Below are positions 3,640-31,296 of a DNA stretch of 31,783 bases, piece after piece. The DNA comes from Clostridia bacterium (GTDB lineage Bacteria; Aerophobota; Aerophobia; Aerophobales; AE-B3A), in assembly GCA_030610745.1 (NCBI GenBank), contig JAUWRC010000001.1, positions 1 through 31,783 of the forward strand, read 5' to 3'. A model generated the notes under the pieces. The model was not told the DNA's origin and did no database searches. It saw only the letters and a list, made by a program, of their open reading frames with translations. The translations under genes and the position numbers were made by a program. The stretch's first letter is position 1. Each line of letters begins with the position of its first letter.

Positions 3640-3787
3640 TCAAACCATTATTTCTCCGGCAATCTTTTCCACTTCTTTCATCAGTCCTGTATTTAGCTCG
3701 AAGAGCGGGGTATTGGCCAGATCTGCCTCCAGAATTTTTTCATCGTAGGAAATAAATCCTAAAAAATTAAAGTGAGGCAATTTTCAT
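3640..3787 (-). pseudogene. cooC: Internally deleted CooC-type (CODH/ACS nickel-insertion ATPase) gene
   Basis: GGAG Shine-Dalgarno, then ATG AAA ATT GCC (MKIA, the CooC start), joined out of frame to LPHFNFLGFISYDEKILEADLANTPLFELNTGLMKEVEKIAGEIMV*, which resembles a CooC C-terminus. Confidence 0.6.
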
Positions 3788-3829
3788 AAATTTTTTCTCC
3801 AAAAAATACCTTCAAAACAAGCTTTTTAA

Positions 3830-3857
3830 ATTTTACCACTTCTCTTATCCCTGTCAA
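3830..3857 (-). promoter_or_regulatory. Sigma70-type promoter upstream of the cooC remnant
   Basis: Minus strand TTGACA-16 nt-TAAAAT with a TG extended -10. Confidence 0.6.
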
Positions 3858-17595: not shown

Positions 17596-18681
17596 TTGAT
17601 TGACTTATTTCTTGCACCGGGAAGATATATTCAGGAAAGAGGAATATTAAGTAGGGCAGGAGAACTCATCTCATCCTTAGGTAAAAAACCACTATTTTTA
17701 TCTGATAAGTTAGTCTGGTCTAAGGTGGGAAAGATCCTTCTTCACAGCCTAAAGGAAACTAACCTAAGGAGTAGATTTGAGGAATTTAAGGGAGAATGCT
17801 GCAGGCAAGAAATAGAGCGAGTTACCGCCTCAGTAAAGAAGAAAAAAATAGACCTCATTGTGGGCTGTGGAGGAGGAAAAGCTCTAGACACAGCTAAAGC
17901 CGCTAGTTTTTACCTACATCTTCCTGTAATAACGGCTCCTACCAGTGCCGCTACCTGTTCTGCCTGGTCATCCATTGCTCCTCTTTACACAAAGGAAGGG
18001 GTTTACCTGGAGAGCCTGAACCTTCAAAAAAGTCCAAATCTGGCTTTGGTAGACCCCCAGATAATTGCTCAAGCCCCGGCAAGATTACTTTCAGCGGGGA
18101 TGGGAGATGCTTTAGCTAAATGGTGCGAAGGAAGAGTCTCCACCCAGGGAATAAAGAAAGACCTTTCTACCGAGGTAGCATTGGACCTTTCTAAAAAGTC
18201 TTACCATTTAATAAAAAGCATAGGGGTCAAGGCAAAAAGAGATGTAGAAAAGAAAAAAAGTTCTTCAGAATTAGACCAGATTATACAGATTAATATTTTT
18301 TTAACCGGGCTGATAGGTGCATTAGGCAAGGGAAGATGCCGCAGCTCCGCAGCGCATGCCTTCAATTATGGTATGAGTATTTTTAAAGAAACACACGAGA
18401 GCCTGCATGGAGAGAGAGTAGCTTTTGGAATAATAATGATGTTAATTCTTGAAGAACGCAGCGAGGAAGAAATAGACGAACTTTTAAGCTTTTATTCTTC
18501 TTTGGACCTGCCTTTAACTTTGGAAAAATTGGGCTTAATGGAAAATAAGAAGATATTAGTACGATTGGCCAAGGAGATTTGCAAAGAAGGAAGCCATATC
18601 TATAGACTTCCTTTTCCTGTAAATGAAGAAATGGTCTATAAAGCCTTATTAGAAGCAAACGCCCGGGGGAAGAAACTCTAG
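17596..18681 (+). CDS. Glycerol dehydrogenase-like metal-dependent alcohol dehydrogenase
   Basis: PGRYIQ, GCGGGKALDTAK, GMGDALA, AAHAF and LHGERVAFG motifs. TTG start. Confidence 0.85.
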   Translation: MIDLFLAPGRYIQERGILSRAGELISSLGKKPLFLSDKLVWSKVGKILLHSLKETNLRSRFEEFKGECCRQEIERVTASVKKKKIDLIVGCGGGKALDTAKAASFYLHLPVITAPTSAATCSAWSSIAPLYTKEGVYLESLNLQKSPNLALVDPQIIAQAPARLLSAGMGDALAKWCEGRVSTQGIKKDLSTEVALDLSKKSYHLIKSIGVKAKRDVEKKKSSSELDQIIQINIFLTGLIGALGKGRCRSSAAHAFNYGMSIFKETHESLHGERVAFGIIMMLILEERSEEEIDELLSFYSSLDLPLTLEKLGLMENKKILVRLAKEICKEGSHIYRLPFPVNEEMVYKALLEANARGKKL

Positions 18682-18780: not shown

Positions 18781-18824
18781 TTACTACTTACTACTGGAAA
18801 CTATACGCTACCCGCTATACGCTA
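18781..18824. repeat. Degenerate heptamer tandem array
   Basis: TTACTAC TTACTAC TGGAAAC TATACGC TACCCGC TATACGC TA. The end overlaps the stop of the 448-aa gene. Confidence 0.6.
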
Positions 18825-20168
18825 GCTTTTTAGCCTTCTTCGCCCTACAAAAACTACCAGGCCTACTCCTAGAGGAAAGATAGAGAGGATATATAGCCAT
18901 TTTGCCTTTTCTTTTCTTACCAGACGTATCTCTCTTTTACCTCCCTGGAAAAGTTCTCCTTCCTCTTTCTCCATGTTAATCTCGTAACTTGTTTTTTGCA
19001 GAGTGGATGCGAGCTCAAGCTTGTATCCTTCAAAGGTGGGTTGCCTGTCAGGCATTTTTACCGGGTCAAACTCCACAATTTCATATCCTAACTCAGGGCC
19101 GGAGATTTGTTCCACATAATAAGGAAGTCTCACTATTCTCTGAAGAATTTCTTCTCCTTTTGAAAAGAGAAGAGTTACATCTTCGATAGATTTGATGTGG
19201 ACCCATTTCCACCCCTCTTCTCTTCCCCTGTTCTGAGGATCTTCTAATTTGTTGTAATAAAGCTCATTATATTCATCCTGAATAAAGGGATTAAAGTAAA
19301 GAGTATTTTCTCCTGCCGCGTAAATTATCCAGCTTGGGTCATCGCAGGATTCTTTTCTTGTCCATCTATTTCCCGGAATAATCCCATATCCTGTTCCTCC
19401 TTCTCTTCGGCAGGTGAAAAGAACAAGGTCTTTCTCGCTGTCCTGAACAATAGTTCCATCCTCTGCTCTTAATCTTATTTTATAATGGCCGAGGGGCAAG
19501 TTAATAACGTAATCTTTCGTGGGTGGAGTAACATAGAATTGGGGTGGAGAAGGTGGAGTTGGTTCTCGGGGCATCCTTTCCTCAATCTCTTCTTTTTCAA
19601 TCTCCTCTCCCGCCTCTCTTCTTTCTTTTATTTCTTCAAGAAAATCATTGAAATTTTTCTCATATTCTATTTGTGCTTGTTGATATTCGGCAATCTGCTT
19701 ATAATATTCCTCAATAGCCCCCATGAACTTCTCAAAATAAGCACGGGCCTCCTCACCTTTATAAAGAAGGCAAGCTTCTCCGTAGTATCCTTCCGGATAA
19801 TAGCGAGAATTATCCTCTTTTTCTAGAGTCTTAATTACTTTTTCTCCTTTTAAGACCTCCAGCACTCCTTCTACTTCCTCATTCAAAGCCTGAAAGCCAG
19901 CCACATATTTTCCTGTAATGGGCCAGAAATAAACCAGAGTTATACGGGCAGAGATAGCATTGTTTTTATCAGCCATAAGATAGATGGTATCTTCAGTGCG
20001 GGGAGTAAATCCCCCTGTATAACCCCTGCCGTTGAAGACGCTTAAACCATAAACTAACTGTTCTCTGAGCTCTGGTGCCTGGGCTCCGCTTAAAGTAGCT
20101 AGACAGAAGACCCATCCTATAATTAGAGTTAGCGAAAATAGAACAAATCTGCATTTGACAATCTTCAT
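18822..20168 (-). CDS. Hypothetical extracytoplasmic protein with signal peptide and C-terminal TM anchor
   Basis: Hydrophobic N-terminus ending A-Q-A, acidic helical middle, PTPPSPP linker, and a C-terminal hydrophobic helix followed by RRRLKS. Confidence 0.8.
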   Translation of the reverse strand: MKIVKCRFVLFSLTLIIGWVFCLATLSGAQAPELREQLVYGLSVFNGRGYTGGFTPRTEDTIYLMADKNNAISARITLVYFWPITGKYVAGFQALNEEVEGVLEVLKGEKVIKTLEKEDNSRYYPEGYYGEACLLYKGEEARAYFEKFMGAIEEYYKQIAEYQQAQIEYEKNFNDFLEEIKERREAGEEIEKEEIEERMPREPTPPSPPQFYVTPPTKDYVINLPLGHYKIRLRAEDGTIVQDSEKDLVLFTCRREGGTGYGIIPGNRWTRKESCDDPSWIIYAAGENTLYFNPFIQDEYNELYYNKLEDPQNRGREEGWKWVHIKSIEDVTLLFSKGEEILQRIVRLPYYVEQISGPELGYEIVEFDPVKMPDRQPTFEGYKLELASTLQKTSYEINMEKEEGELFQGGKREIRLVRKEKAKWLYILSIFPLGVGLVVFVGRRRLKS

Positions 20169-20191
20169 TAGTCACCTCAAAAAATAGTTTT

Positions 20192-21028
20192 TCATCCCCT
20201 TACCCCTTTTCTTTTAAGGATAGATATAGAGAGTACAAGCAAGATAACAGAATAGATTATAGAATAAAGTATATTTAGCCCCCAGAGAAAGCTGTTATCC
20301 AAGGAAATAGCATCTATACCCCGGCTAAGATAGGAAAAAGGAGAAATCCAATTTGCTCCCCGGGAAACTACGGAAAGAGTATCTGATAAATAGGTTAGGA
20401 TAGAAGAGACTTCCCCTTGAGGCAGGCCAAGGAGTATGGTCTGTCCAACCTCTACAGCTAAAAAGAGAATAAGTACCCCTATTAGCCAGATAATGGAGTT
20501 TCTCATCTTTTTAGTCAGAGATGATATAAAGAGGCCAAAACTGATTACGCAGGAGACGGAAAATATAGAGGTGAGAATAGCCTTACCTAATCTAGAGGAA
20601 AACCCCATGTTAGTAAGAAGAGACACTCCCCAAAAATAAACGAGGAAAAAGAGGACCACTACAAAATAGGTGAGGATGTTTTTAATATACTTTCCCAGAA
20701 TATAGCTGGAAGAGCTTACTGGCCCATAGAAAAGGACCTCCAGAGTTCCCTGATCCTTTTCCCGGGAGATGGAAATAGCAGAAAGCAGAGCCAGATAAAA
20801 AGAGATAATGATGGTAGAGATAAAAAGTGGATAATTTAAAGGGTCTGCGGAAATCAAGATATCGTCTCCCTTAATGCTTCCAAGAAAGTTTTTCAGGATG
20901 AAGGAAGAAGCCACAAAGGAAACAAATGTAGTTATATAAATCCCCCAACTAGACAAAGTTGAATATAGGTCTCTTTTGGCCAGTGCCTTCATTGTATGAA
21001 TAGATAAAGAAAGTTCTTTTCCAGCCAT
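20192..21028 (-). CDS. ABC-2-type permease (GldF/NosY-like)
   Basis: About six TMs with ISREKDQGTLEVLFYGPVS and SPFSY motifs. Confidence 0.85.
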   Translation of the reverse strand: MAGKELSLSIHTMKALAKRDLYSTLSSWGIYITTFVSFVASSFILKNFLGSIKGDDILISADPLNYPLFISTIIISFYLALLSAISISREKDQGTLEVLFYGPVSSSSYILGKYIKNILTYFVVVLFFLVYFWGVSLLTNMGFSSRLGKAILTSIFSVSCVISFGLFISSLTKKMRNSIIWLIGVLILFLAVEVGQTILLGLPQGEVSSILTYLSDTLSVVSRGANWISPFSYLSRGIDAISLDNSFLWGLNILYSIIYSVILLVLSISILKRKGVRG

Positions 21029-21054
21029 TTTATTCTATTTCTCCTCTTTTTTTA

Positions 21055-21768
21055 TTAATATTCCTCATAAAGTTTTACATCATTTACGCTGTCAGCAAAG
21101 TCTCCCTGGGGAGTATGAAGAACTACCTCCAGAAGGCCAAACTTCTCCACTTCCTCATCTACTTTGAGCTTCTCCCAGGGAATAACAGCCTTGTTTTTGG
21201 CCAGGAAGGCTTCCGAGTCCCAGAAAAGTTCAATGGGACCCCGGAATATCTCTCTTCCCTTAACGTAGTCTTCTTCCGTTCCTATCCTAGCCCAGAGGGT
21301 TCCTTCTAAGCTCAAAGGAAGACAGGGAAACTGGGTTATTCCTTCTCCCTTGCTGTTGACAAATCTTATTTCTAATTGAATCCCCTCATCCCCAGATTCT
21401 GTAAAAACAATTATCCTTTGCAGGTCAGGAACTTCTTTACCTTCCATGGATATGTCTACTATATTTTCCCCTCTTTTTAGCTTGATATCCCTGGTAAAGT
21501 CATAATAGCCAGGGGCCGTGGCTGTTAAGGTGTAGGAACCCGGTTTAATCCCTGTTAGAGAATAGGTTTTACCCGGATATCTATATTTGAGAGTAGATTT
21601 GTCACCAACGACAATCCTTATTTCCCACACCGGGTCATCACTTAAGGCATCAACTGCTTTTCCTTGCACCTGGCCATATTTTTCTCCCTTCAAACGAGGA
21701 AGGAAAAGGGCAAGCAAGGCTACTATGATAATACCTATTATGAGGGGATAGACAATGGATTTTTTCAT
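21055..21768 (-). CDS. Membrane-anchored protein with a carboxypeptidase-regulatory-like beta-sandwich domain
   Basis: N-terminal TM, then G.V.G.AVDA....P, GI.PGSYTLTATAPGY and ENIVDISM pattern. Confidence 0.7.
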   Translation of the reverse strand: MKKSIVYPLIIGIIIVALLALFLPRLKGEKYGQVQGKAVDALSDDPVWEIRIVVGDKSTLKYRYPGKTYSLTGIKPGSYTLTATAPGYYDFTRDIKLKRGENIVDISMEGKEVPDLQRIIVFTESGDEGIQLEIRFVNSKGEGITQFPCLPLSLEGTLWARIGTEEDYVKGREIFRGPIELFWDSEAFLAKNKAVIPWEKLKVDEEVEKFGLLEVVLHTPQGDFADSVNDVKLYEEY

Positions 21769-21779
21769 TCTGCTCCTCT

Positions 21780-22718
21780 TTAATCCTCCTTAGCCAATAG
21801 AGAGATATTTTTTTCAGTAATAGTGATAAATGCTTCTTCCAGACTCATCTCTTTAGTCTTTATGCCTAAAACAACTCCTCCCTGGCCAGAAATAGCTTCT
21901 GAAATTTGAGCCCGGTAGTCTTTATCTGCTTTTATCTTGAGAGTTAAAAGGTTTCCTTCTTCCTTTATCTCTTCAATAAAATCAAAGGCGGAAAGAGTAT
22001 CTACAATCTCTTTTTTCATCTGGGAAAGCTCTATCTGTAGCTCTACTACATCAGTCAATTTCTTCTTTAAGTTATCCATACTATCTTCAGCCAAGAGTCT
22101 GCCTTTATTGATAATACCTACTTTTCCGCAAAGTCTTTCTACCTCAGAGAGAAGGTGGGAAGAGATAAAAATGGTTCTTCCCTTTTTATTTTCTTCTTCT
22201 ATAAGGTCTCTGATTCGCTTTATTCCTGTAGGGTCTAACCCGGAGACAGGTTCATCCAAAAGAAGGAGCTCCGGGTCATGCAAGAGGGCTCTGGCAAAGC
22301 CAAGCTTTTGCTGCATACCTCGAGAAAACGCTCCCAATTTTCTGTTTTTAACTTCCAGTAGGTTTAGTTTCTCCAGGAGTCCATTAATTCTTTTCTTCGA
22401 ATTCTTTACTCCATAAAGGTCGGCAAAGAAAGAAAGATATTGGCCGGCACTCATCTCTTTATATAAATATTGTTTTTCAGAAACAACCCCTATTTTTTTC
22501 TTGATAGTAAGAAAATCTTTAGCCATGTCCTGGCCAAAAAGATAAACCTTTCCTTGAGTTGGCTCCAGGATACCCAAAAGCATTAAGATGGTGGTAGTTT
22601 TTCCTGCTCCATTGGGCCCTAAAAAGCCGTAGATTTCCCCTTCTTTAACCTTAAGATTCAAGTTATCCACTGCCCTAAACCCATCGTACTCTTTAATGAG
22701 GCCGTCGGTTTTGATCAT
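21780..22718 (-). CDS. ABC transporter ATP-binding protein (ABC-2/CcmA-like)
   Basis: GPNGAGKTT, FSRGMQQKL, LLLDEP and ISSH motifs. ATG 22718 preferred as start. Confidence 0.93.
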   Translation of the reverse strand: MIKTDGLIKEYDGFRAVDNLNLKVKEGEIYGFLGPNGAGKTTTILMLLGILEPTQGKVYLFGQDMAKDFLTIKKKIGVVSEKQYLYKEMSAGQYLSFFADLYGVKNSKKRINGLLEKLNLLEVKNRKLGAFSRGMQQKLGFARALLHDPELLLLDEPVSGLDPTGIKRIRDLIEEENKKGRTIFISSHLLSEVERLCGKVGIINKGRLLAEDSMDNLKKKLTDVVELQIELSQMKKEIVDTLSAFDFIEEIKEEGNLLTLKIKADKDYRAQISEAISGQGGVVLGIKTKEMSLEEAFITITEKNISLLAKED

Positions 22719-22798
22719 TTTCTTTCCTTTTTTAAAAATCATTCAGCCTTTGCCTTAAGAAATAAGACAAAAGCTTCAAAAAATACCACTGGTTTTTT

Positions 22799-22827
22799 AA
22801 TATACCAACTCAGTTATTTTTTGTCAA
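22799..22827 (-). promoter_or_regulatory. Sigma70-type promoter of the four-gene ABC operon
   Basis: Minus strand TTGACA-17 nt-TATATT with TG extension. Confidence 0.6.
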
Positions 22828-22843
22828 ATACATTACAGTGAAC

Positions 22844-22868
22844 TTGTGAATTAAAGTTTAATTCACAA
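22844..22868. promoter_or_regulatory. Perfect 12-bp-arm palindrome, candidate operator
   Basis: TTGTGAATTAAA-G-TTTAATTCACAA. Confidence 0.4.
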
Positions 22869-22954
22869 AAGATTGAATTCGTTCTCCTGTATCAAATTTT
22901 TTGCCCCCCCAGAAACTGGAGGAGAACGAAAATTGCCTGGACGAAGACGATTTT

Positions 22955-22975
22955 GGATTCAGGATTCAGGATTCA
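22955..22975. repeat. Heptamer tandem repeat
   Basis: (GGATTCA)x3. A further array ATAGCGT GGAGCGG GGAGCGT ATAGCGA lies at 23017-23044. Confidence 0.65.
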
Positions 22976-23100
22976 GAGGCGTGGTTGTCAAAAACAAGGA
23001 ATGGGCGAAAATTTTAATAGCGTGGAGCGGGGAGCGTATAGCGAATAGTATAAGTTATGACCCATTGCCCTACTTGCCATTATTGCGAGCGAATAAAGAA

Positions 23101-23135
23101 TGTCATTGCGAGGAACGGAGCGACGAAGCAATCTC
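23101..23135. repeat. CGTC-type REP half element
   Basis: TGTCATTGCGAGGAACGGAGCGACGAAGCAATCTC. Confidence 0.7.
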
Positions 23136-23172
23136 AGAATGGTAGGGGTGCGATTAACTAAGGGAGATAAAA

Positions 23173-23931
23173 CTGCAAGTAGAAGAAATAAGACGCATAT
23201 TGGAGAGAGTAAGAGGGGGAAAGATAAAAATAGAAGAAGCTTTGGAAAAGCTAAAAGTCCTTCCTTACCAGGATCTTGGCTTTGCTAAGATTGATACCCA
23301 TCGAGAACTGCGCAGGCACTATCCTGAAGTAATCTTTTGCCCTGGCAAAACCACCGAGCAAATTATTCATATTGTAAAGAAAATGAGGGAGGCCAAATCC
23401 AAGGTAATAGCTGTTCGAGCTGAAAAAGAAATTTATGAGGCCATTAAAGAGATTCTACCTGAAGCTAGCTATTTTGAAAAAGCAAAGATAGTGGCCGTGG
23501 GAAAGAAAGAAAAAAAGAGAAGTTCTCATATTATATTGGTAGTAACCGCTGGAACAGCAGACATTCCTGTAGCTGAAGAGGCAGCGGTTACAGCAGAAAT
23601 TCTGGGTAACAGAGTGGATCGCCTCTACGATGTGGGGGTGGCTGGAATTCATAGACTACTTGATAATAAGGAGAAGCTATTTCAGGCTAATGTCCTCATC
23701 GTGGTGGCAGGTATGGAGGGAGCCCTGCCCAGTATAGTAGGGGGTCTGGTAAGCCGGCCCGTTATAGCTGTACCTACCTCTATAGGATACGGAGCAAGTT
23801 TTGGAGGAATTTCAGCTCTTCTTACCATGCTTAATAGCTGCAGCCCTGGAATAGCTGTAGTCAACATTGATAACGGATTCGGAGCCGGATATATGGCCAG
23901 TTTAATCAATCGGATAGAGGTGAAAAGATGA
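23173..23931 (+). CDS. larB: Nickel-pincer cofactor biosynthesis carboxylase/hydrolase LarB
   Basis: FAKIDTHRELR..YPEVIFC.GKT, TAGTADIPVAEEA, DVGVAGIHRL, GMEGALPS and VVNIDNGFGA motifs. Start placed at CTG 23173 after AAGGGAG; the track uses TTG 23200. Confidence 0.93.
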   Translation: MQVEEIRRILERVRGGKIKIEEALEKLKVLPYQDLGFAKIDTHRELRRHYPEVIFCPGKTTEQIIHIVKKMREAKSKVIAVRAEKEIYEAIKEILPEASYFEKAKIVAVGKKEKKRSSHIILVVTAGTADIPVAEEAAVTAEILGNRVDRLYDVGVAGIHRLLDNKEKLFQANVLIVVAGMEGALPSIVGGLVSRPVIAVPTSIGYGASFGGISALLTMLNSCSPGIAVVNIDNGFGAGYMASLINRIEVKR

Positions 23932-25145
23932 GGATTGCTTACTTTAATTGTTTTTCTGGTATTAGTGGAGATATGATTCTTGGAGCATTGCTCGATTTAG
24001 GCTGGCCAGTGGAAGAGCTGGAAAAAGAGTTAGGTAAATTAAACTTAACTGGCTATAAAATTAAAGTAAAGAAAGTACAAAAAAAGAGTATTGCTGCCAC
24101 CCAGATTAAGATAGAGACTAAAGGCGACGAAAAGGAAAGAAAACTTCCTCATATTTTATCTATTATAGAAACAAGTAAGCTAGGCAAGGAAATAAAAGAG
24201 ATTAGCAAGAGCATATTCACCAAATTGGCTGCTGTTGAGGCAAAGATACACAAAAAAAGCCCAGAAGAGATACATTTCCATGAATTAGGAGGTCTGGACA
24301 CTATTATTGATGTAGTAGGAGCAGCAGTAGGAATAAAGTATTTAGGGATAGAGAAAATTTATGCCTCCAGCCTTCCTCTTGGAAAAGGTTTTGTTAAATG
24401 TGCTCACGGCACTCTGCCTCTACCTGCTCCAGCCACTTTGGAGCTATTAAAAGAAATTCCTGTCTATGGTAGCCAGATTGAGGCAGAGCTGGTCACTCCT
24501 ACTGGAGCGGCTATTATTACTAGCCTGGCGAAAAACTTTGGTGAAATGCCCTCTATAAAAATTGAAAGCATCGGCTATGGGGCAGGGCAAAGGGACCTCC
24601 CCACCCCTAATTTATTAAGAGTTTCTGTAGGTATAGCAAAAAATGCTTACCAGGAAGATACAGTCTCTTTAATTGAAACTAACATTGATGATATGAATCC
24701 AGAGTTCTACGAGCATGTCATAAATAGATTATTCAAGGAAGGAGCTCTCGATGTTTTCCTCACCCCTATTCAGATGAAAAAGACCAGACCGGCCACTATG
24801 CTCAGTGTTATGGCAAAAGAGGAAAAAATAGAAAAGATGCTCGAGATTATTTTCGAAGAAACCACTACTCTGGGGGTAAGAATCTCTAAAGTAAAGAGAA
24901 AAAAATTAATGCGAGAGAGCCGAGGTATAGAAACCAGGTACGGTAAAATCGAGGTTAAAATAGCCAGGCTCAATGGGGTCATTAAAAACATCGCCCCTAG
25001 CTATGAAGATTGCCAGAAGATTGCTTTCCGTCTTAATATCCCCCTTAAAGAGGTCTATGAAGAAGCAAAAATTCGTATCTCGTCGTGCGTGATGCGTATT
25101 GCGCGAAAAAAAGGAAAAGAAGATGCTCAAACAAATAGCGAATGA
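23928..25145 (+). CDS. larC: Nickel-pincer cofactor nickel insertase LarC
   Basis: FSGISGDMILGAL, E...H, HFHELG..DTI.D, C.HG.LP.PAPAT, ELVTPTGAA, ETNIDDM, MKK.RP and ETTTLGVR motifs. Confidence 0.93.
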   Translation: MRIAYFNCFSGISGDMILGALLDLGWPVEELEKELGKLNLTGYKIKVKKVQKKSIAATQIKIETKGDEKERKLPHILSIIETSKLGKEIKEISKSIFTKLAAVEAKIHKKSPEEIHFHELGGLDTIIDVVGAAVGIKYLGIEKIYASSLPLGKGFVKCAHGTLPLPAPATLELLKEIPVYGSQIEAELVTPTGAAIITSLAKNFGEMPSIKIESIGYGAGQRDLPTPNLLRVSVGIAKNAYQEDTVSLIETNIDDMNPEFYEHVINRLFKEGALDVFLTPIQMKKTRPATMLSVMAKEEKIEKMLEIIFEETTTLGVRISKVKRKKLMRESRGIETRYGKIEVKIARLNGVIKNIAPSYEDCQKIAFRLNIPLKEVYEEAKIRISSCVMRIARKKGKEDAQTNSE

Positions 25146-25734
25146 GCTCAAAAAGCACGCTCCTTTCACTTTTCTTGGAGCTACTACAGGAATCATCATT
25201 ATGGCAGCAGTAGTTTTTACTGATGTTCCTTCCGAAATTTCCCATACTCTTTTTTATATCTTACACCCTCTCCATGTTATATTGAGCGCACTTGTAACTA
25301 CAGCTATGTATAAACGATATAGTAAGGGAAAAGTGTGGGAAGTAATTTTGATTGGTTATGCAGGCTCTATCGGCATAGCTACATTAAGCGATATAGTAAT
25401 TCCTTATTTAGGAGGAAGCTTGCTTGGCATCAAGATAGGATTTCATCTGGGTTTTATTGAAAAATGGTGGCTCGTAAACCCCCTGGCCCTAGCCGGTATT
25501 GCCATCGGCTATTGGAAACCTACAACCAAGGTTCCCCATGCAGGGCACGTATTGTTAAGTACCTGGGCATCACTGTTTTACTTCACAGCATTTGGGGCAG
25601 CAAATTGGATGCCTTTACTTCCTTTTGTCTTACTCTTTTTATTCCTCGCTGTCTGGATTCCTTGCTGTACAAGCGATATAGTTTTCCCCCTTTTATTTAC
25701 CTCGCTACAAAAGGTCCCTCCTTCAAGGAATTGA
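25123..25734 (+). CDS. Uncharacterised six-TM membrane protein with duplicated HxxHV-LS / SDIV-P motifs
   Basis: ATG 25123 overlaps the end of larC. About six hydrophobic segments with His, Asp and Cys inside them. Confidence 0.75.
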   Translation: MLKQIANELKKHAPFTFLGATTGIIIMAAVVFTDVPSEISHTLFYILHPLHVILSALVTTAMYKRYSKGKVWEVILIGYAGSIGIATLSDIVIPYLGGSLLGIKIGFHLGFIEKWWLVNPLALAGIAIGYWKPTTKVPHAGHVLLSTWASLFYFTAFGAANWMPLLPFVLLFLFLAVWIPCCTSDIVFPLLFTSLQKVPPSRN

Positions 25735-25861
25735 TGATACTCTTGCGGTAATCAAGCTTGATATTGAGTTTATCAAAAACGAACTTAAACAGAAAGTTGC
25801 CCGTGACGAATTTGCTGTCTTAGAAAGAAGAGTTAGTATGCTCGAAGCTAAACTAAGTTAG
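25733..25861 (+). pseudogene. C-terminal coiled-coil fragment of a small hypothetical gene
   Basis: Start-less frame DDTLAVIKLDIEFIKNELKQKVARDEFAVLERRVSMLEAKLS* with heptad character. Confidence 0.4.
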
Positions 25862-25880
25862 AGATAACATAAAGTTTCCA

Positions 25881-27014
25881 TTATATCCGAACCCCCCACT
25901 TATTCATTTTGACGTATTTCATCCCACTACCGTCTAATTCAAAATATTCTGATTCTGAACAGGGTATACAGAACTTCTCTCCATCCTTTTCAACAATCCT
26001 TGCAGCCATAATACTTTCTCCACATTTAGAGCATATTATACTATCATAGATAGGTGCATAGTCTGGAATTTCTACTTGCACTTTTTTAACATTGAAGAGA
26101 GATTCGAAATCCAATTCAATAACTTCAAAAGAGACCCTCCTAAATAGTCCCGCTAACTTTCTCATATCCTCATCATTTCCTTTTCTCTCTACTACTACTT
26201 TCTGAAAAAGCTCTTTAGATTCTGGATATTTATTATCCCAAAGTGCATAAGCATCGGGCTTTAAGGAAATCCTCAGACCTTTACCGTCTCTTCTTGTAAC
26301 TGTCACTGCAGTTTTTCCAAAATCCCTGTATATCAAACCGTTATTGCCAAAAGTACAGCCGGTTACAAATTGGATACCATCACTGAAACAACTGTTGGTT
26401 TCAACTATGGCAAGCAACTTTTCCATTCCTTCAGAATGTATTCCAAGCTCTCTTAAGGAATAAGCCCCGGCAATGACACCAAAACTCAAACCTGGGCAGA
26501 AATGCCCGTGTATATCCCCTGCCTTCAATAGAAGAGTCTTTAGATTGCCACTCTTGATAAGGCCGTTTATCTCTGATCTTGGATTAGCCTTTTTATATTC
26601 TTGCCAGACCCTTATTTGCTCGGCTTCATCTAGAGAAGGGACATAAGGTTTTATATCCAAAACAGGTGTACCATCTAAAGCATCCAGGCCTTCGACCTTT
26701 AACTGCCTATCTTTTCTCTCAATGAGTCTAACTGTAGTAACACCGATACTACTTGGTCTTTTAGGGCTGCGAGAAGCAAATACTCCCTTGATTTGGCCGT
26801 CCCATACAGGCCCTTTGAGATTATACCCCTCTGAGAGATGAAAATTAAAAATAACCTGGATATATTCGTTTTTTTCAATACGATAAAGCCCTTCCTCGTA
26901 TTTTGGATCAATAATAATAATGCTTTCATATTTGCGCATCTTGGCAGGATCTGCTCTTTCTTTAAACTTGCTTCTAACTACACCGATAGATTGAAATTCA
27001 GCTATTTTTATCAC
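25881..27014 (-). CDS. TsaA/TrmO-like SAM-binding domain fused to an FmdE-family domain with Zn finger
   Basis: N-half: IGVVRS, IF.FHLS, GVFASRSP.RP..IG.T, LDG.PVLDIKPY. C-half: HGHFCPGL, VETNSCFSDGIQ..TGCTFGN, CSKCGE...CIPC. Confidence 0.88.
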   Translation of the reverse strand: MIKIAEFQSIGVVRSKFKERADPAKMRKYESIIIIDPKYEEGLYRIEKNEYIQVIFNFHLSEGYNLKGPVWDGQIKGVFASRSPKRPSSIGVTTVRLIERKDRQLKVEGLDALDGTPVLDIKPYVPSLDEAEQIRVWQEYKKANPRSEINGLIKSGNLKTLLLKAGDIHGHFCPGLSFGVIAGAYSLRELGIHSEGMEKLLAIVETNSCFSDGIQFVTGCTFGNNGLIYRDFGKTAVTVTRRDGKGLRISLKPDAYALWDNKYPESKELFQKVVVERKGNDEDMRKLAGLFRRVSFEVIELDFESLFNVKKVQVEIPDYAPIYDSIICSKCGESIMAARIVEKDGEKFCIPCSESEYFELDGSGMKYVKMNKWGVRI

Positions 27015-27774
27015 CTATGAACTCCTCTGGAATAACAAAGATTCCTTTTGAGTGATTTATAACCCTAACCTTTATACCATAAACAGCTTCTATATTTTCC
27101 GGGTTAAGTACCTCTAAACCTCCCGCAGCAAAAACTTTTCCATAATTTAACATTATAACCTTATCACTATATCTTAAGGCTAGATTTAGATCATGTATAG
27201 CTATTATTGCCGAAACCCCACTCCTTGTTTGTTCCTTTACCAGGTTTAAAACCTCTAATTGATGTTTTAAGTCTAAATTGGCTGTTGGCTCATCTAAGAG
27301 GAGAATTTTTGGCTCTTGAGCAAGTGCTCTACCTATTATAACCTTCTGCCTCTGCCCACCACTAAGTTCATTGATATCACGTAACGCAAACTCTTCTAGC
27401 TCCAGTGTCCCTATAACATCGGATACTACTTTTAAGTCTTTGGCTGCTGGTGCCCACCTGATGTACGGCTTCCTTCCCATTAATATTGTATCAAACACTG
27501 TCGAGGGAAAGCTTTTTCCATTACTCTGTGGGACATACCCCATTCTCCTGGCAACCTCCTCACTTCCAATGCCCTTAATATCCTTCCCATCTATCATGAT
27601 ACACCCCCGTTGGGGTTTTAAAATTCGATCGATACATTTTAGGAGGGTACTCTTTCCCGAGCCGTTTGGGCCAACGATTGTAAGAACTTCTCCACCCTCT
27701 AATCTGAAGCTAATATTATTTAATGCAGGTGCGCTGCCATAGCTAAATTTTATACCTTTGATTTCCAACTTCAC
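26998..27774 (-). CDS. FecE/BtuD-type ABC ATP-binding protein
   Basis: GPNGSGKST, YVPQ, LSGGQRQ and LLDEPT..LDLKHQ motifs. The GTG start at 27774 overlaps the permease stop (GTGA). Confidence 0.92.
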   Translation of the reverse strand: MKLEIKGIKFSYGSAPALNNISFRLEGGEVLTIVGPNGSGKSTLLKCIDRILKPQRGCIMIDGKDIKGIGSEEVARRMGYVPQSNGKSFPSTVFDTILMGRKPYIRWAPAAKDLKVVSDVIGTLELEEFALRDINELSGGQRQKVIIGRALAQEPKILLLDEPTANLDLKHQLEVLNLVKEQTRSGVSAIIAIHDLNLALRYSDKVIMLNYGKVFAAGGLEVLNPENIEAVYGIKVRVINHSKGIFVIPEEFIGDKNS

Positions 27775-28838
27775 CAGTATTTCCTCCCTTTTATCACTAA
27801 ATATATAAAGAGGGGTGCACCGAGGAAAGAAGTTAGAATCCCAACAGGAAGAACAATTGGCGAGATGATTGTTCTTGCAGCAGTATCTGAAACCAGCAGC
27901 AATATTGCCCCAATAATACATGAGGACGGTATTAGATACCTCTCGTCTCCCCCAATGATTTTACGTACAATGTGAGGTACTACCAACCCAATAAACCCAA
28001 TTATACCAATAAAAGAGACTATCAATGCTGTCACTAAAGAGGCAACTAGCATACCTCCAATTCTCACCCTTTCCACATTTACACCCAAACTTTTTGCAGT
28101 CTCTTCTCCACAGTTCAATGCATTGTAGTTCCACATATTATAGAGAAAATATATTGCAGAAGGGATCACCACTGCTGCGATTATCCATATATCGCTCCAT
28201 GAAGTCCTACCTACATCGCCAAAGGTCCAGAAGATAATAGATGAAAGTTGTACATCTTCTGCAAAATACTCCATGGCTGTGGTTCCAGCTATGAACAACG
28301 ATCCTATGGCCACACCGGTAAGAATCATTGTCTCTGGAGATGCTCCCTTATATTTGGCAAGTAAAATGATTATAAAAGTCGCTACTAAGGAAAACCCAAA
28401 TGCACACATCGTGATTATATATGGATTGTTCAGAATAACGGCATCAACACTGCTGCTTTGAATGGACCCAACACCTAGCACTACGATGGCGAATGCCGCA
28501 CCGAATGCCGCCGAATGGGATATTCCCAATGTAAAAGGCGAGCCGAGCGGGTTTCTCAGTATGCTCTGCATTGCCGCTCCTGATACGGCTAACCCCAATC
28601 CTGCAACTATTGCTGTAATAACCCTAAGAATACGTATCTTCCAAATTATGGTGGATATAATACCATCATCCTGGCCTATCAATGCTGCAATAACCTTAGA
28701 TACCTCAATACGAACAGAGCCCACACTAATTGAAATAATAACCATAAGGAAAAGGAGGGTCATTGAAATCAATACAAAGAGAACCTTTTTCTTTGTATGT
28801 GCTCTATAGCTATCCAGAATGCTCTCTTTACTAGACAT
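27771..28838 (-). CDS. FecCD/BtuC-type ABC permease
   Basis: RILR...A...G..LAVSG..MQ..LRNPL.SP..LG, GEETA.SLG.NV and GIIGFIGL.VPH motifs. ATG 28838 preferred as start. Confidence 0.92.
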   Translation of the reverse strand: MSSKESILDSYRAHTKKKVLFVLISMTLLFLMVIISISVGSVRIEVSKVIAALIGQDDGIISTIIWKIRILRVITAIVAGLGLAVSGAAMQSILRNPLGSPFTLGISHSAAFGAAFAIVVLGVGSIQSSSVDAVILNNPYIITMCAFGFSLVATFIIILLAKYKGASPETMILTGVAIGSLFIAGTTAMEYFAEDVQLSSIIFWTFGDVGRTSWSDIWIIAAVVIPSAIYFLYNMWNYNALNCGEETAKSLGVNVERVRIGGMLVASLVTALIVSFIGIIGFIGLVVPHIVRKIIGGDERYLIPSSCIIGAILLLVSDTAARTIISPIVLPVGILTSFLGAPLFIYLVIKGRKYW

Positions 28839-28860
28839 ATGCCGCCATTCTTTATCCTTC

Positions 28861-29937
28861 CTATTCGAGTTTTTTAAATCCTCCATATTTATCCTTCATA
28901 TCCGAATATACACCCTTTCCTAAGAAGTGCTGGTAAATATCGTCTGCCTTCTTTTCCGGATCTACATCGCTGAATCTATCAGGGAAAAGTACCTTTCCAA
29001 CGTAATATGCATCCGCTAACACTGTAGCGAAATTTGTTGCGTACCAATTATACGGCATAACGCCATATAGTTCCCCGTTTTTCACCGCTTCTATTGAATC
29101 ATATACTCCATCCTTTAAATCGTCCATTATGAGAGAGTAACCGCCTTGGTCTACGAATATTATTTCCGGATTCCATTCTAACAACTTCTCTTTATCAATG
29201 AATGCATGCTCCGTTTCTAGTTCACCGGCTACATTGTTAGCATTGACAAATACAAAGGGTGAATATTCCGGTTCGGTGGATAAAATCCCATGAGCGCCGC
29301 GGTAACCAATGCCACCAATATAGACCTTTTGTTTTTGATTGTTTGTGATGTCCTTGGTCCGGTCATTGAGAGCCTGAATAGTGTCGTCTATGTATTCGAT
29401 GAGTTCTTCAGCCCTGTTCTTTTTACCCATTACCTTTCCCACAAGCCTCAGGTTCTCGTAAAATGTATCCCTATTATCATCAAGGTCTCCATAATCCAGA
29501 GCCACAACTGGTATCCCAGTCTTTTCCTGAAGTTCATCAGCATCACCCACAGTAGTATACGTCCAGAATATTACATCGGGCTCTTGTGCCACAATAAGCT
29601 CTGCGTCACCACCATGTATAGGACCAATAGGAGGAAGGCTAGCAAGTTCTGGATGGGCAAAGTCATAGGGCTTATCGCCCCTTTGCTCGATATCCTCTAC
29701 CCCAACTATTTTATCGATACATTCGAGATATACAAGCAACCTTAATGCTCCTGCTTCGATGCCAACAACCCTATCCACTTTTTCAGGAATTTTAACAGCT
29801 CTATTGAGCATATCTTTGATCGACACCGTATTCTGGGTGATTTTACTTTCTTGACAGATACTCCCTATATACAAAAGTGCAGCTAGCACTACAGCCCCAA
29901 TAGCTACCGTTCCAATCCATTCTTTCTTAATTGTCAT
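28861..29937 (-). CDS. Periplasmic-binding-protein type III (BtuF/FepB-like) substrate-binding protein
   Basis: N-terminal hydrophobic anchor, D.LNRAV.IPEKV.RVV, E.IVA.EPDVI, LQEKTGIP, WNPEII and LADAYYVGKVLFPDRF motifs. Confidence 0.9.
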   Translation of the reverse strand: MTIKKEWIGTVAIGAVVLAALLYIGSICQESKITQNTVSIKDMLNRAVKIPEKVDRVVGIEAGALRLLVYLECIDKIVGVEDIEQRGDKPYDFAHPELASLPPIGPIHGGDAELIVAQEPDVIFWTYTTVGDADELQEKTGIPVVALDYGDLDDNRDTFYENLRLVGKVMGKKNRAEELIEYIDDTIQALNDRTKDITNNQKQKVYIGGIGYRGAHGILSTEPEYSPFVFVNANNVAGELETEHAFIDKEKLLEWNPEIIFVDQGGYSLIMDDLKDGVYDSIEAVKNGELYGVMPYNWYATNFATVLADAYYVGKVLFPDRFSDVDPEKKADDIYQHFLGKGVYSDMKDKYGGFKKLE

Positions 29938-30056
29938 TTACCCTACCTTCCTAGTAATTTTTTAATCTTCGTGTTATCCTTGTTCCAATACAACAACATC
30001 AAATACTGCTTTTACAAGCCACGAGTCACGGGCAACAGCTCACCATTCCTCATTTG

Positions 30057-30224
30057 CCATTGCGAGGAGTATGTAGCAGTGCGATTTATGGCACATTGTC
30101 ACTGCGAGGCGCCTGCCTGTGCAGACACGCAGACAGGGAGCCGAAGCAATCTCGAAAAAGCTGCAAGTTTCTGAAGAGTAGCGGTGCCATTTATGGCACA
30201 TTGTCGGATGAATCCGACCGCTAC
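30057..30224. repeat. Nested REP cluster: CGTC-type element(s) plus three GTAG palindromes
   Basis: GTAG copies at 30073-30100 (+), 30178-30203 (+) and 30200-30224 (-); the last two form an inverted doublet GTAGCGGT...ACCGCTAC. CGTC core TGTCACTGCGAG...GAAGCAATCTC at 30097-30153. Confidence 0.7.
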
Positions 30225-30242
30225 TACCCGCTATACGCTATC

Positions 30243-30662
30243 TTAGGCTAGCTCTTTCCCCGTGGTAGTCATAGTTAACTTGCCGTGCTTTACACCGCGA
30301 GTGCTTATCAGCTTATCAGCAATAGTCTTAATTTTATCCACTCTTCCCCTTACCAATAAAACCTCCAGACAATTGTCCTCGTCCAAATGCAGGTGCATAG
30401 TAGAAATGATAAGGTTATGGGAATGATGTTGGAGCTCAATCAAAGCCTCTGAAAGCCCTGGTGTGTGATGGTTATAGACAAGGGTGATTGTCCCTGCCAT
30501 CTCTTTTTTCTCTGTCTTCCACTCTTCTTCCACCAGATGACCCCTGATTAAATCTCTTACCGCCTCTGATCTATTGGTATATCCCTTCTTAGATACCAGC
30601 TTGTCAAAATTCTTCAGTAATCTCTTTTCCATAGATACCCCGAATCTTACTATCTCTTCCAC
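30243..30662 (-). CDS. nikR: Nickel-responsive transcriptional regulator
   Basis: RHH domain ([17 protein letters not shown]) plus the Ni site QHH.H...[16 protein letters not shown] 30662 after GAGGTG preferred; alternative start 30671. Confidence 0.95.
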
Positions 30663-30781
30663 CGTACTCACCTCACTTAGTTCATAGTTCGTTGTTCGTA
30701 GTTCGTAGAAAAAGAGGCGAAGAAACAGAGAAGCAAAGATGCAAGGAAAAATCTATGATGAAAACATACCAATTTCTCTAT

Positions 30782-30816
30782 TTCTTGCTTCTTGCTTCTT
30801 GCTTCTTGTTTCTTGT
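30782..30816. repeat. Heptamer tandem repeat in the nikR leader
   Basis: (TTCTTGC)x3 (TTCTTGT)x2. TAGTTCA TAGTTCG TTGTTCG TAGTTCG also lies at 30678-30705. Confidence 0.7.
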
Positions 30817-30937
30817 TTCTTACCACTTATAGCTTATAGTCGATGAACAATGAACTACCAGCGAGCTCATAAGAGCGAGCGTACTATGAACTATAAAACT
30901 TATTTTTATTCTGGATTCAATAATCCTTTTTCGCCTT

Positions 30938-30966
30938 TGTGTTACTATTTTTAATATGGTAACACA
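30938..30966. promoter_or_regulatory. Putative NikR operator
   Basis: Perfect palindrome TGTGTTAC-N13-GTAACACA upstream of nikR, overlapping a predicted -10. Confidence 0.72.
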
Positions 30967-30983
30967 GAATTGGAAAAAGTCAA
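30956..30983 (-). promoter_or_regulatory. Putative nikR(-ABC operon) promoter
   Basis: Minus strand TTGACT-16 nt-TACCAT with TG extension. Confidence 0.5.
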
Positions 30984-31183
30984 ATGGTCGAATGGGATAG
31001 TAAAAAATGAGATAATAAATGGGTAGGTTTATTAAAGGTCAGGCTAGAAAGGTGAAAGGAACCTTTTCTCTCAAACCATCTAAAAAAACCTGGCAGTAAA
31101 AATCACTAAGGACAAAAAAGCTTTCGAAACTTTCTTTTGGACTTTGGCGGCGAAGAAGTTTTATTTTTTTCTTATAACGATTA

Positions 31184-31296
31184 TTATGGCAAATGCTCTA
31201 AGTCTGTTAAATCTTTATGTCTTCCACTCGCTTTCTTGTTTTTTTGAGATCATCAATCGATAACACCTTTTTGTCGAGTCGTGGCAATTTGTACAT
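31184..31296 (-). pseudogene. Collapsed remnant of a putative two-gene nucleotidyltransferase TA-like module
   Basis: AAGGAG, then MYKLPRLDKKVLSIDDLKK. A one-base shift in an A7 run gives NKKASGRHKDLTDLEHLP*, resembling the 'K.A.GR.KD..D...L' C-terminus of small nucleotidyltransferases. Confidence 0.4.

Follow-up and report, generated by a model that had tools for sequence, protein, structure and literature searches.

A probable nickel island in an Aerophobota genome: a NikR-headed FecCD-type import operon convergent with nickel-pincer cofactor genes

A 31,783-nt stretch of DNA (hereafter the window; contig JAUWRC010000001.1 of the Clostridia bacterium assembly GCA_030610745.1, placed in the phylum Aerophobota by GTDB) carries two convergent operons that probably form a nickel island, in which a FecCD-type ATP-binding cassette (ABC) importer of nickel, controlled by the nickel-responsive repressor NikR, is combined with genes for the nickel-pincer cofactor. 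The plus-strand operon comprises larB, larC, and a gene for a 203-aa membrane protein (TM6), and the minus-strand operon comprises nikR followed by genes for a binding protein, a permease, an ATPase, and a fusion of a TrmO_N domain, an FmdE domain, and a zinc ribbon; we refer to the last four genes as the cassette. Genes were identified by profile searches against Pfam and NCBIfam, using the NCBIfam equivalog cut-offs in bits, and these searches upheld all gene calls of a first-pass annotation that had been made from the sequence alone. The window is contig C42 of a metagenome-assembled genome of 1.37 Mb in 149 contigs that is 79.5% complete, encodes a tmRNA (which marks it as bacterial), and originates from cold-seep sediment; the sequencing runs with matching DNA are cold-seep and sediment metagenomes. 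The phylum of the window is represented in our collection by only 31 species genomes, and compared loci are cited by L numbers. The features of the island are as follows.

23200–23931, plus strand: larB, nickel-pincer cofactor biosynthesis carboxylase/hydrolase (NCBIfam LarB equivalog, 305.6 bits against a cut-off of 175)
23928–25145, plus strand: larC, full-length nickel insertase with LarC1 and LarC2 parts (Pfam Ni_insertion, E 2.3e-149)
25123–25734, plus strand: TM6, membrane protein of 203 aa, overlapping larC by 23 nt and translationally coupled to it
25881–27014, minus strand: TrmO_N-FmdE-C4 zinc-ribbon fusion, last gene of the importer operon (Pfam matches given below)
26998–27774, minus strand: ABC ATPase of 258 aa, counted from the GTG at 27774 (Pfam ABC_tran, 2.1e-34)
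27771–28886, minus strand: FecCD-family permease, type II, BtuC-like (Pfam FecCD, 5e-93)
28861–29937, minus strand: class III Peripla_BP_2 substrate-binding protein with an N-terminal membrane anchor (Pfam Peripla_BP_2, 1.5e-22)
29938–30242, no strand: spacer between nikR and the binding-protein gene, largely dispersed repeats resembling repetitive extragenic palindromes (REP)
30243–30671, minus strand: nikR, nickel-responsive ribbon-helix-helix repressor (NCBIfam NikR equivalog NF003381, 215.8 bits against a cut-off of 105)
30672–30938, no strand: nikR leader with a long hairpin-forming repeat (about 30678–30897; inverted repeats I3, I5, and I8)
30939–30965, no strand: NikR operator GTGTTAC-N13-GTAACAC, an exact match to the published consensus
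30956–30983, minus strand: promoter-like site TTGACT-16-TG-TACCAT (consensus scan, 9 of 12 matches, extended -10 TG)

In the mechanism that we propose, nickel-loaded NikR would bind the GTGTTAC-N13-GTAACAC box over the promoter when nickel is sufficient. This promoter would read nikR and then, through the repeat-filled spacer, the genes for the binding protein, the FecCD permease, the ATPase, and the TrmO_N-FmdE fusion, such that scarcity of nickel would lead to expression of the import operon. Nickel would then enter through the type II ABC importer, with Ni-(His)2 or another small chelate as its probable form if NiuB and NikA are a guide, and the fusion protein would accept or process the metal in the cytoplasm at its His2Cys2 site, while a ligand of the S-adenosylmethionine (SAM or AdoMet) type may occupy its beta-barrel. 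The larB-larC-TM6 operon would build the nickel-pincer nucleotide cofactor, its coupled TM6 product being most likely a metal permease, and the four-gene cassette would have replaced another nickel transporter behind a resident nikR.

The NikR operator and the transporters behind nikR

The nikR product consists of the Pfam domains RHH_1 and NikR_C (E 1.5e-33), aligns with Pyrococcus horikoshii NikR (2BJ1) at E 1.7e-47, and is 91–93% identical to NikR of same-genus genomes; a GTG at 30662 is an alternative start. The high-affinity nickel ligands are H88', H99, H101, and C107 in Helicobacter pylori numbering, and the NikR of the window keeps His/His/His/Cys in the corresponding columns (qH, mHlHl, and nCle) when aligned with NikR of H. 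pylori and P. horikoshii. The box upstream of nikR is identical to the delta-proteobacterial NikR consensus GTGTTAC-N13-GTAACAC (PMC545781), and it is the sole site with two or fewer mismatches across all 149 contigs; by our estimate, a perfect match to its 14 bases is expected about 0.01 times in 1.37 Mb. NikR-type boxes recur 15–166 nt upstream of the nikR orthologues in the sister loci L090, L114, L115, L116, and L119, and in L117 such a box lies upstream of an FmdE gene. The -10 element of the promoter-like site lies inside the right half of the box, and the scan that found this site was overall not enriched over shuffled sequences, so the promoter at 30956–30983 is placed by position only. 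The first-pass annotation had described a perfect operator-like palindrome over the nikR promoter and NikR control of the import operon: the palindrome is exact at 30939–30965, and its identity with the published consensus and its recurrence before orthologous nikR genes support the proposed control. In the delta-proteobacterial regulons, GTGTTAC-N13/14-GTAACAC boxes lie upstream of nikMNQO (PMC545781); operator sequence, geometry, and repression logic are the same here, whereas the transporter is FecCD-type, nikR is the first gene of the operon, and an inserted repeat parts the box from nikR.

Sister genomes encode nikR orthologues that are 77–93% identical and lie beside larC/TM6 or larBC, and the slot behind these nikR genes varies. 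It holds a DsbD_2-family permease gene in the same-genus loci L090 and L114; genes for FmdE, TrmO_N, and then a NikABC(DE)-type ABC system of the peptide/opine class in L113, also of the same genus; and CbiM-type (NikMNQO-like) systems in L116 and L119. In L115, which is a second contig of the L116 genome and carries no lar genes, nikR heads a cassette of separate genes in the order binding protein, FecCD permease, ATPase, FmdE, and TrmO_N. This nikR (L115:6973–7388, contig C58 of genome G008) matches in two frames, residues 4–95 and 96–142, which suggests a frameshift; the L116 genome also has an intact nikR at its lar island. Because the slot is filled interchangeably with recognized nickel systems, we argue that the FecCD-type cassette also imports nickel, that is, that an ABC pump of the "iron type" most likely carries nickel here, and the nickel-uptake role that the first-pass annotation gave to the ABC genes is strongly supported by the box together with this synteny.

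The cassette differs in its affinities from the repressor gene that precedes it. Its four genes are 69–83% identical to those of the metagenome-assembled locus L008 (82.5% for the permease), whereas nikR is 47% identical to the L008 nikR, from which we conclude that the cassette was acquired horizontally and inserted after a nikR that was already there, at a junction that carries repeats. We rejected descent from the split-gene cassettes of its own phylum, to which the cassette genes are only 42–65% identical.

To place the cassette in a wider context, we surveyed 62 species-representative loci that encode the fusion protein and have enough upstream flank. The full cassette lies directly upstream of the fusion gene in 42 of these loci, NikR is encoded in 25, and in 11 nikR directly precedes the binding-protein gene. 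The fusion gene also lies beside NikABCDE-type genes (L011, L014, L015, and L088) and directly before a DsbD_2 permease gene in nine Bacteroidales loci (L029, L047, L071, L073, L078, L081, L082, L083, and L085); this permease is of the same kind as that following nikR in the same-genus L090 and L114. The lar genes are present in six loci (about 10%). They converge on the cassette also in L009, L010, L059, L074, and L087, and the Thermoplasmatales-like archaeal loci L009 and L010 repeat the layout of the window, with nikR and the binding protein-FecCD-ABC-fusion genes converging on larC-larB-larE. The linkage to lar genes thus recurs in other genomes, as the neighbourhood analysis proposed with the first-pass annotation had looked for, and it is real but a minority pattern; in most genomes, to judge from gene content, the cassette would be a general nickel route.

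The importer, its cargo, and the fusion protein

The minus-strand order of nikR followed by binding protein, permease, ATPase, and fusion genes was as first described, and the overlaps among the latter measure 26 nt (binding protein/permease), 4 nt (permease/ATPase), and 17 nt (ATPase/fusion). The overlap of the last three genes follows from the ATPase start, which is most likely the GTG at 27774, given its GGGAGG ribosome-binding site and its GTGA overlap with the permease stop; ATPase homologues at other loci are 254–266 aa long. The binding protein opens with a hydrophobic anchor (residues ~8–28) without a canonical lipobox, which fits an archaeal-like origin of the cassette.

The transporters usually regarded as responsible for nickel uptake in strict anaerobes and in archaea are NikABCDE, NikMNQO, and NiCoT, and the first-pass annotation had set FecCD/BtuCD importers apart from nickel importers. 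That distinction does not hold, as NiuBDE (CeuE/FecDE) of H. pylori and Helicobacter mustelae is an experimentally established FecCD-type ABC importer of nickel that is repressed by nickel (PMC5140060). The same gene set is present in the window, with Peripla_BP_2, FecCD, and ATPase genes encoded together and overlapping, and both systems share a class III Peripla_BP_2 binding protein, a FecCD-type permease, an ATPase, and nickel-responsive repression. Both also tie a cytoplasmic metal-binding helper to the importer: the metallochaperone SlyD acts on NiuD (PMC7840056), which is the nearest precedent in logic for the fusion protein. The cassette differs from NiuBDE in that its binding protein is not a NiuB orthologue, its helper is an operon-encoded TrmO_N-FmdE-zinc-ribbon protein rather than SlyD, it has no outer-membrane receptor, its hosts are anaerobic bacteria and archaea, and it is known from genes alone. 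By analogy, the cassette would work like NiuBDE while standing outside the NiuBDE lineage.

The closest solved relative of the binding protein is TM0189 of Thermotoga maritima (PDB 2ETV; E 1.7e-99, 317 residues aligned), a close homologue that is annotated as a putative iron(III) binder by database label only; a literature search for its function or ligand gave methods papers only. The second-best solved relative is the molybdate/tungstate binder MolA (HI_1472, E 2e-23). This similarity speaks for an alternative in which the ABC genes import a cargo other than nickel (molybdate or tungstate as in MolABC, cobalt, zinc, or an iron chelate) and the NikR linkage reflects cross-metal regulation or chance. 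NiuBDE, moreover, also moves cobalt and bismuth (PMC5140060), and the metal site of a crystallized FmdE protein held mostly zinc (PMC2954224). We nevertheless regard such a cargo as unlikely given the presence of NikR in 25 of the 62 fusion loci, the exact NikR box and the retained nickel-site residues of NikR in the window, and the recognized nickel/cobalt transporter types that occupy the slot in sister genomes.

The first-pass annotation had favored a more exotic cargo, namely a nickel-pincer precursor or a metallo-tetrapyrrole (F430 or a corrinoid), which the TrmO_N-FmdE protein would process to feed LarC. BtuCD/FecCD-type importers do typically carry bulky chelates, cassette and lar genes are convergent in the window as in the five loci named above, and TrmO_N keeps three of the four AdoMet contacts. 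We consider this cargo very unlikely, as the sister-genome slot holds CbiM-type and NikABCDE-type nickel systems as well as DsbD_2 transporters, the fused or split TrmO_N/FmdE pair also accompanies NikABCDE-type and DsbD_2 transporters, mostly without lar genes, and lar genes occur in only 6 of the 62 fusion loci. A small oxyanion, not a macrocycle, is the ligand of the nearest characterized relative of the binding protein. Nor did we find a cobalamin riboswitch: Rfam revealed no riboswitch, either when the whole window was searched at gathering thresholds or when the limit was relaxed to E 1 for 29800–31200, and gave only weak matches to hairpin-RNA models over the nikR leader repeat, because this repeat folds into a long hairpin. 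For the ABC genes, Rfam gave no B12 riboswitch and the consensus scan no second promoter-like site. Returning to nickel as the cargo, the fusion protein appears, from its gene neighbours, to be a general nickel-handling partner that accompanies three transporter classes and not a processor of cargo specific to LarC.

The fusion protein matches the Pfam domains TrmO_N (5e-29), FmdE (2.2e-35), and zf-dskA_traR (1.2e-8), and its fold matches in the PDB are 2NV4 (E 1.4e-20, a class VIII SAM-binding beta-barrel), 2GVI, 2GLZ, and 3D00. With the FmdE proteins 2GLZ, 2GVI, and 3D00 (PMC2954224) and the archaeal YaeB/TrmO-like protein AF0241 (2NV4; PMC4132733), it shares folds, the FHGHxC...C site, and three AdoMet contacts; here, by contrast, the domains are fused (or encoded by adjacent genes in reversed order in sister genomes) and tied to NikR-controlled importers. 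FmdE proteins have an alpha+beta core in which an FHGHxC motif and a distal Cys make up the metal site, and some add a treble-clef zinc finger (PMC2954224). The FmdE site of B8FYU2_DESHY (2GLZ), formed by His15, His17, Cys19, and Cys55, held mixed Zn and Ni, mostly zinc, and most FmdE genes adjoin metal transporter genes according to the authors of that structure (PMC2954224). The corresponding site of the fusion protein is IHGHFC at residues 168–173, with C209 following C173 by 36 residues as Cys55 follows Cys19, and H169, H171, C173, C209, and the CxxC...CxxC motif of the zinc ribbon (328–352) are invariant among 22 sequences. The fusion family includes 1,423 proteins at E up to 1e-10, with about 50% identity across taxa that range over Halanaerobiales, Bacteroidales, Spirochaetes, Thermotogae, Bipolaricaulota, Asgard archaea, Thermoplasmatota, haloarchaea, and methanogens.

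Relatives from the same phylum encode FmdE-zinc-ribbon and TrmO_N as separate adjacent genes, in an order opposite to that in the fusion (L113:396–1485, L115:1405–2454, L117:2378–3433, and L122:2–928), and the pair in L113 precedes a NikABCDE-type transporter. That the two are separate in sister genomes and fused here is a Rosetta-stone sign of joint work; a complex prediction for the split FmdE and TrmO_N proteins from L113 gave a score of 0.00, which speaks neither for nor against binding. We infer from these domains that the fusion would act as a cytoplasmic nickel acceptor or processing protein.

Databases name homologues of the fusion TrmO, and the protein exceeds the cut-off of the NCBIfam TrmO equivalog (104.4 bits against 93.25), such that the last gene could simply encode the tRNA m6t6A37 methyltransferase TrmO, its position after the ABC genes having no functional meaning. 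This possibility is scarcely credible. Escherichia coli TrmO requires its C-terminal DPRxxY domain for m6t6A formation, and AdoMet is contacted in AF0241 by Gln22, Arg82, Asp111, and Lys122 (PMC4132733). The fusion lacks the DPRxxY domain, having FmdE and a C4 zinc ribbon in its place, and for this reason does not belong with TrmO; in addition, the counterpart of Gln22 is replaced, the gene directly follows the transporter ATPase gene in 42 of the 62 loci, and m6t6A has not been found in archaea (PMC4132733), where many members of the family occur.

The lar operon, TM6, and the nickel clients of the genome

LarB, LarC, and LarE constitute the nickel-pincer nucleotide cofactor pathway of Lactiplantibacillus plantarum. 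As in that organism, LarB and full-length LarC match equivalogs here (LarC1 with 218.7 bits against a cut-off of 90, LarC2 with 154.1 bits against 50), and LarA-family clients are encoded elsewhere in the genome; in contrast to L. plantarum, the island has no larE, larA, or Lar(MN)QO beside the lar genes, and larC is coupled to an uncharacterized membrane protein. The start of larC overlaps the larB stop by 4 nt, which together with the overlap of larC and TM6 agrees with the coupling of the three plus-strand genes described in the first pass. The true larB start is possibly the TTG at 23242, from which onward LarB is 92.6% identical to that of the sister locus L090.

As had been noted, the window contains neither larE nor larA. 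In the rest of the genome, larA is represented by two LarA-family genes, on contigs C125 and C109, and larE by a relic only: sub-threshold PP-loop matches and a 27-residue C-terminal remnant at C37:5970–6050. This LarE remnant (27–48 residues, C37:5970–6119, L093) lies in a 216-nt gap between NifU-like and NIL/ferredoxin genes, and the same-genus genome G010 has a larE whose product is 90% identical to the L090 protein. The assembled genome yielded no [NiFe] hydrogenase, carbon monoxide dehydrogenase (CODH), CbiM, or HypA. The two LarA-family enzymes are the sole nickel clients detected, and the island would therefore serve pincer-cofactor enzymes here. A short open reading frame at 3640–3857 of the window resembles the C-terminus of CooC, which would fit the absence of CODH from the assembly.

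The surroundings of larB differ between sister genomes. In L090, a GldA-like dehydrogenase gene directly precedes larB, whereas in the window about 4.5 kb separates the orthologue (17596–18681) from larB, the insert at 18822–23199 containing a four-gene minus-strand ABC-2 transporter operon and a repeat-bearing spacer. Upstream of the dehydrogenase gene lies larE in L090 and a PolX gene in the window.

TM6 matches no Pfam or NCBIfam family, and 36 scanned members of its family likewise match none in Pfam, although it has more than 7,900 homologues. Its structure is predicted with a mean local confidence (pLDDT) of 90.9, and its two halves align with each other (hhalign probability 95.7%, E 1e-8), revealing an internal 3+3 transmembrane repeat. 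This alignment pairs HPxHVxxS with PHxxHVxxS and SDxxxP with SDxxxP; a CC pair is also present. His, Asp, Ser, and Cys residues are invariant in the family, and many homologues have His-rich tails. Foldseek searches gave no match in the PDB, and in AlphaFold DB only unnamed family members. We did not assign TM6 to the trimeric intracellular cation (TRIC) channels, since the best VIA-align match, to a prokaryotic TRIC (Z 10.2), is below the reliable level for helical bundles; the match does fit a 3+3 inverted repeat.

The larC-TM6 pair is kept in the window and in L090, L113, L114, and L116, which represent two genera of the family to which the window belongs, as well as in the metagenome contig L123. 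Among 80 metagenome loci (L123–L202), 66 encode a Fur-family regulator directly upstream of the TM6 homologue on the same strand, in a two-gene unit; all NCBIfam scores of this Fur-family partner are below the cut-offs and assign no metal. The TM6 homologue of L120 lies after an MntP-type gene, and those of L118 and L121 are convergent with feoB. On the basis of these motifs and neighbours, TM6 is most likely a transition-metal permease that was recruited here beside LarC.

A bolder proposal joins the two protein families of the island. It holds that TrmO_N plus FmdE, whether fused or split, is an obligate partner of nickel importers in the cytoplasm, whose SAM-dependent chemistry releases nickel or hands it on, such that it would be neither a passive chaperone nor a tRNA enzyme, and that TM6, with its two sets of three transmembrane helices, its paired HxxH/SD motifs, and its CC pair, founds a new class of transition-metal permeases that is normally under Fur-family control and was recruited here to supply LarC with nickel. 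We regard this combination as doubtful.

Spacers, contiguity, and the standing of the nickel reading

In the spacer between nikR and the binding-protein gene, the consensus scan detected neither a promoter-like nor a terminator-like site on the minus strand. One autoregulated transcript from nikR through the ABC genes is therefore the simplest reading, albeit an unproven one. Folding of this spacer gives stable hairpins with a z-score of only -1.14, and these hairpins could attenuate the transcript. The repeat copies at 30073–30100 and 30178–30205 share the palindromic core GTGCCATTTATGGCAC, and by BLASTN against the genome the repeats of both spacers have copies on dozens of contigs.

These repeats raise the question of whether the adjacency of nikR and the ABC genes is an assembly artefact at a dispersed repeat. 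In a short-read check with Logan contigs of four runs, all contigs break at 30178–30224, within a repeat of the kind just described, as such an artefact would predict, and these breaks leave the original assembly and synteny as the evidence that nikR and the ABC genes are contiguous. We give the artefact very little credence, because in the same-genus loci L090, L113, and L114 nikR is oriented as here and lies within 1.3–6.2 kb of TM6 and larC, independent short-read contigs from three runs span the junction that joins larC to TM6 and the fusion gene, and in 11 further species the binding-protein gene immediately follows nikR.

Several observations weigh against the nickel-island interpretation that we favor. 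A distance of 268 nt separates the box from the nikR start, and another 306 nt separate nikR from the ABC genes, which lie behind stable hairpins through which the presumed co-transcription would have to run, and none of the short-read contigs, all of which break in the repeat, bridges nikR to the binding-protein gene. MolA is the nearest characterized relative of the binding protein, and H. pylori CeuE/NiuB (4INO and 4LS3) is matched at only E 0.37–0.45 over ~95 residues, as expected of a protein that is not its orthologue. In the fusion protein, one of the four AdoMet contacts is replaced (Arg, Asp, and Lys are kept; Gln has given way to Lys, at a position that varies within the family), and literature searches on FmdE with TsaA or NikR returned no functional study of the fusion. 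An intact larE was not found in the assembled genome, so whether the pincer pathway works here is uncertain; this absence is not proof of loss because the genome is incomplete, and 11 of 14 family relatives have an intact larE.

If the nickel-island interpretation is correct, the locus and its relatives would represent a widespread fourth nickel route, judging by gene content, in which a FecCD-type cassette is labelled iron, B12, or siderophore in databases and its accessory fusion protein is labelled tRNA methyltransferase or methanogenesis subunit; thousands of gene annotations would need correction. The window adds the swapping of cassettes behind one nikR, the horizontal acquisition of its cassette, the coupling of TM6 to larC, and a set of detected nickel clients restricted to pincer enzymes. 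The four transporter types swapped behind one orthologous nikR come near to an evolutionary complementation experiment, and the genome is one whose whole detectable nickel economy is the nickel-pincer cofactor. TrmO_N-FmdE and TM6 are two protein families of unknown chemistry that travel with nickel genes, and through this locus a large membrane-protein family without a Pfam model is tied to metal homeostasis.

Short dispersed repeats resembling REP elements or miniature inverted-repeat transposable elements (MITEs) fill intergenic regions of the window (30073–30100, 30178–30225, 30678–30897, and 23100–23136) and break short-read assemblies. Partial copies of the nikR leader repeat occur elsewhere in the genome, and the population is polymorphic for this repeat: in run X4, one contig has 22 other bases in place of 30675–30833, and a 159-nt part of the repeat is thus missing in this variant.

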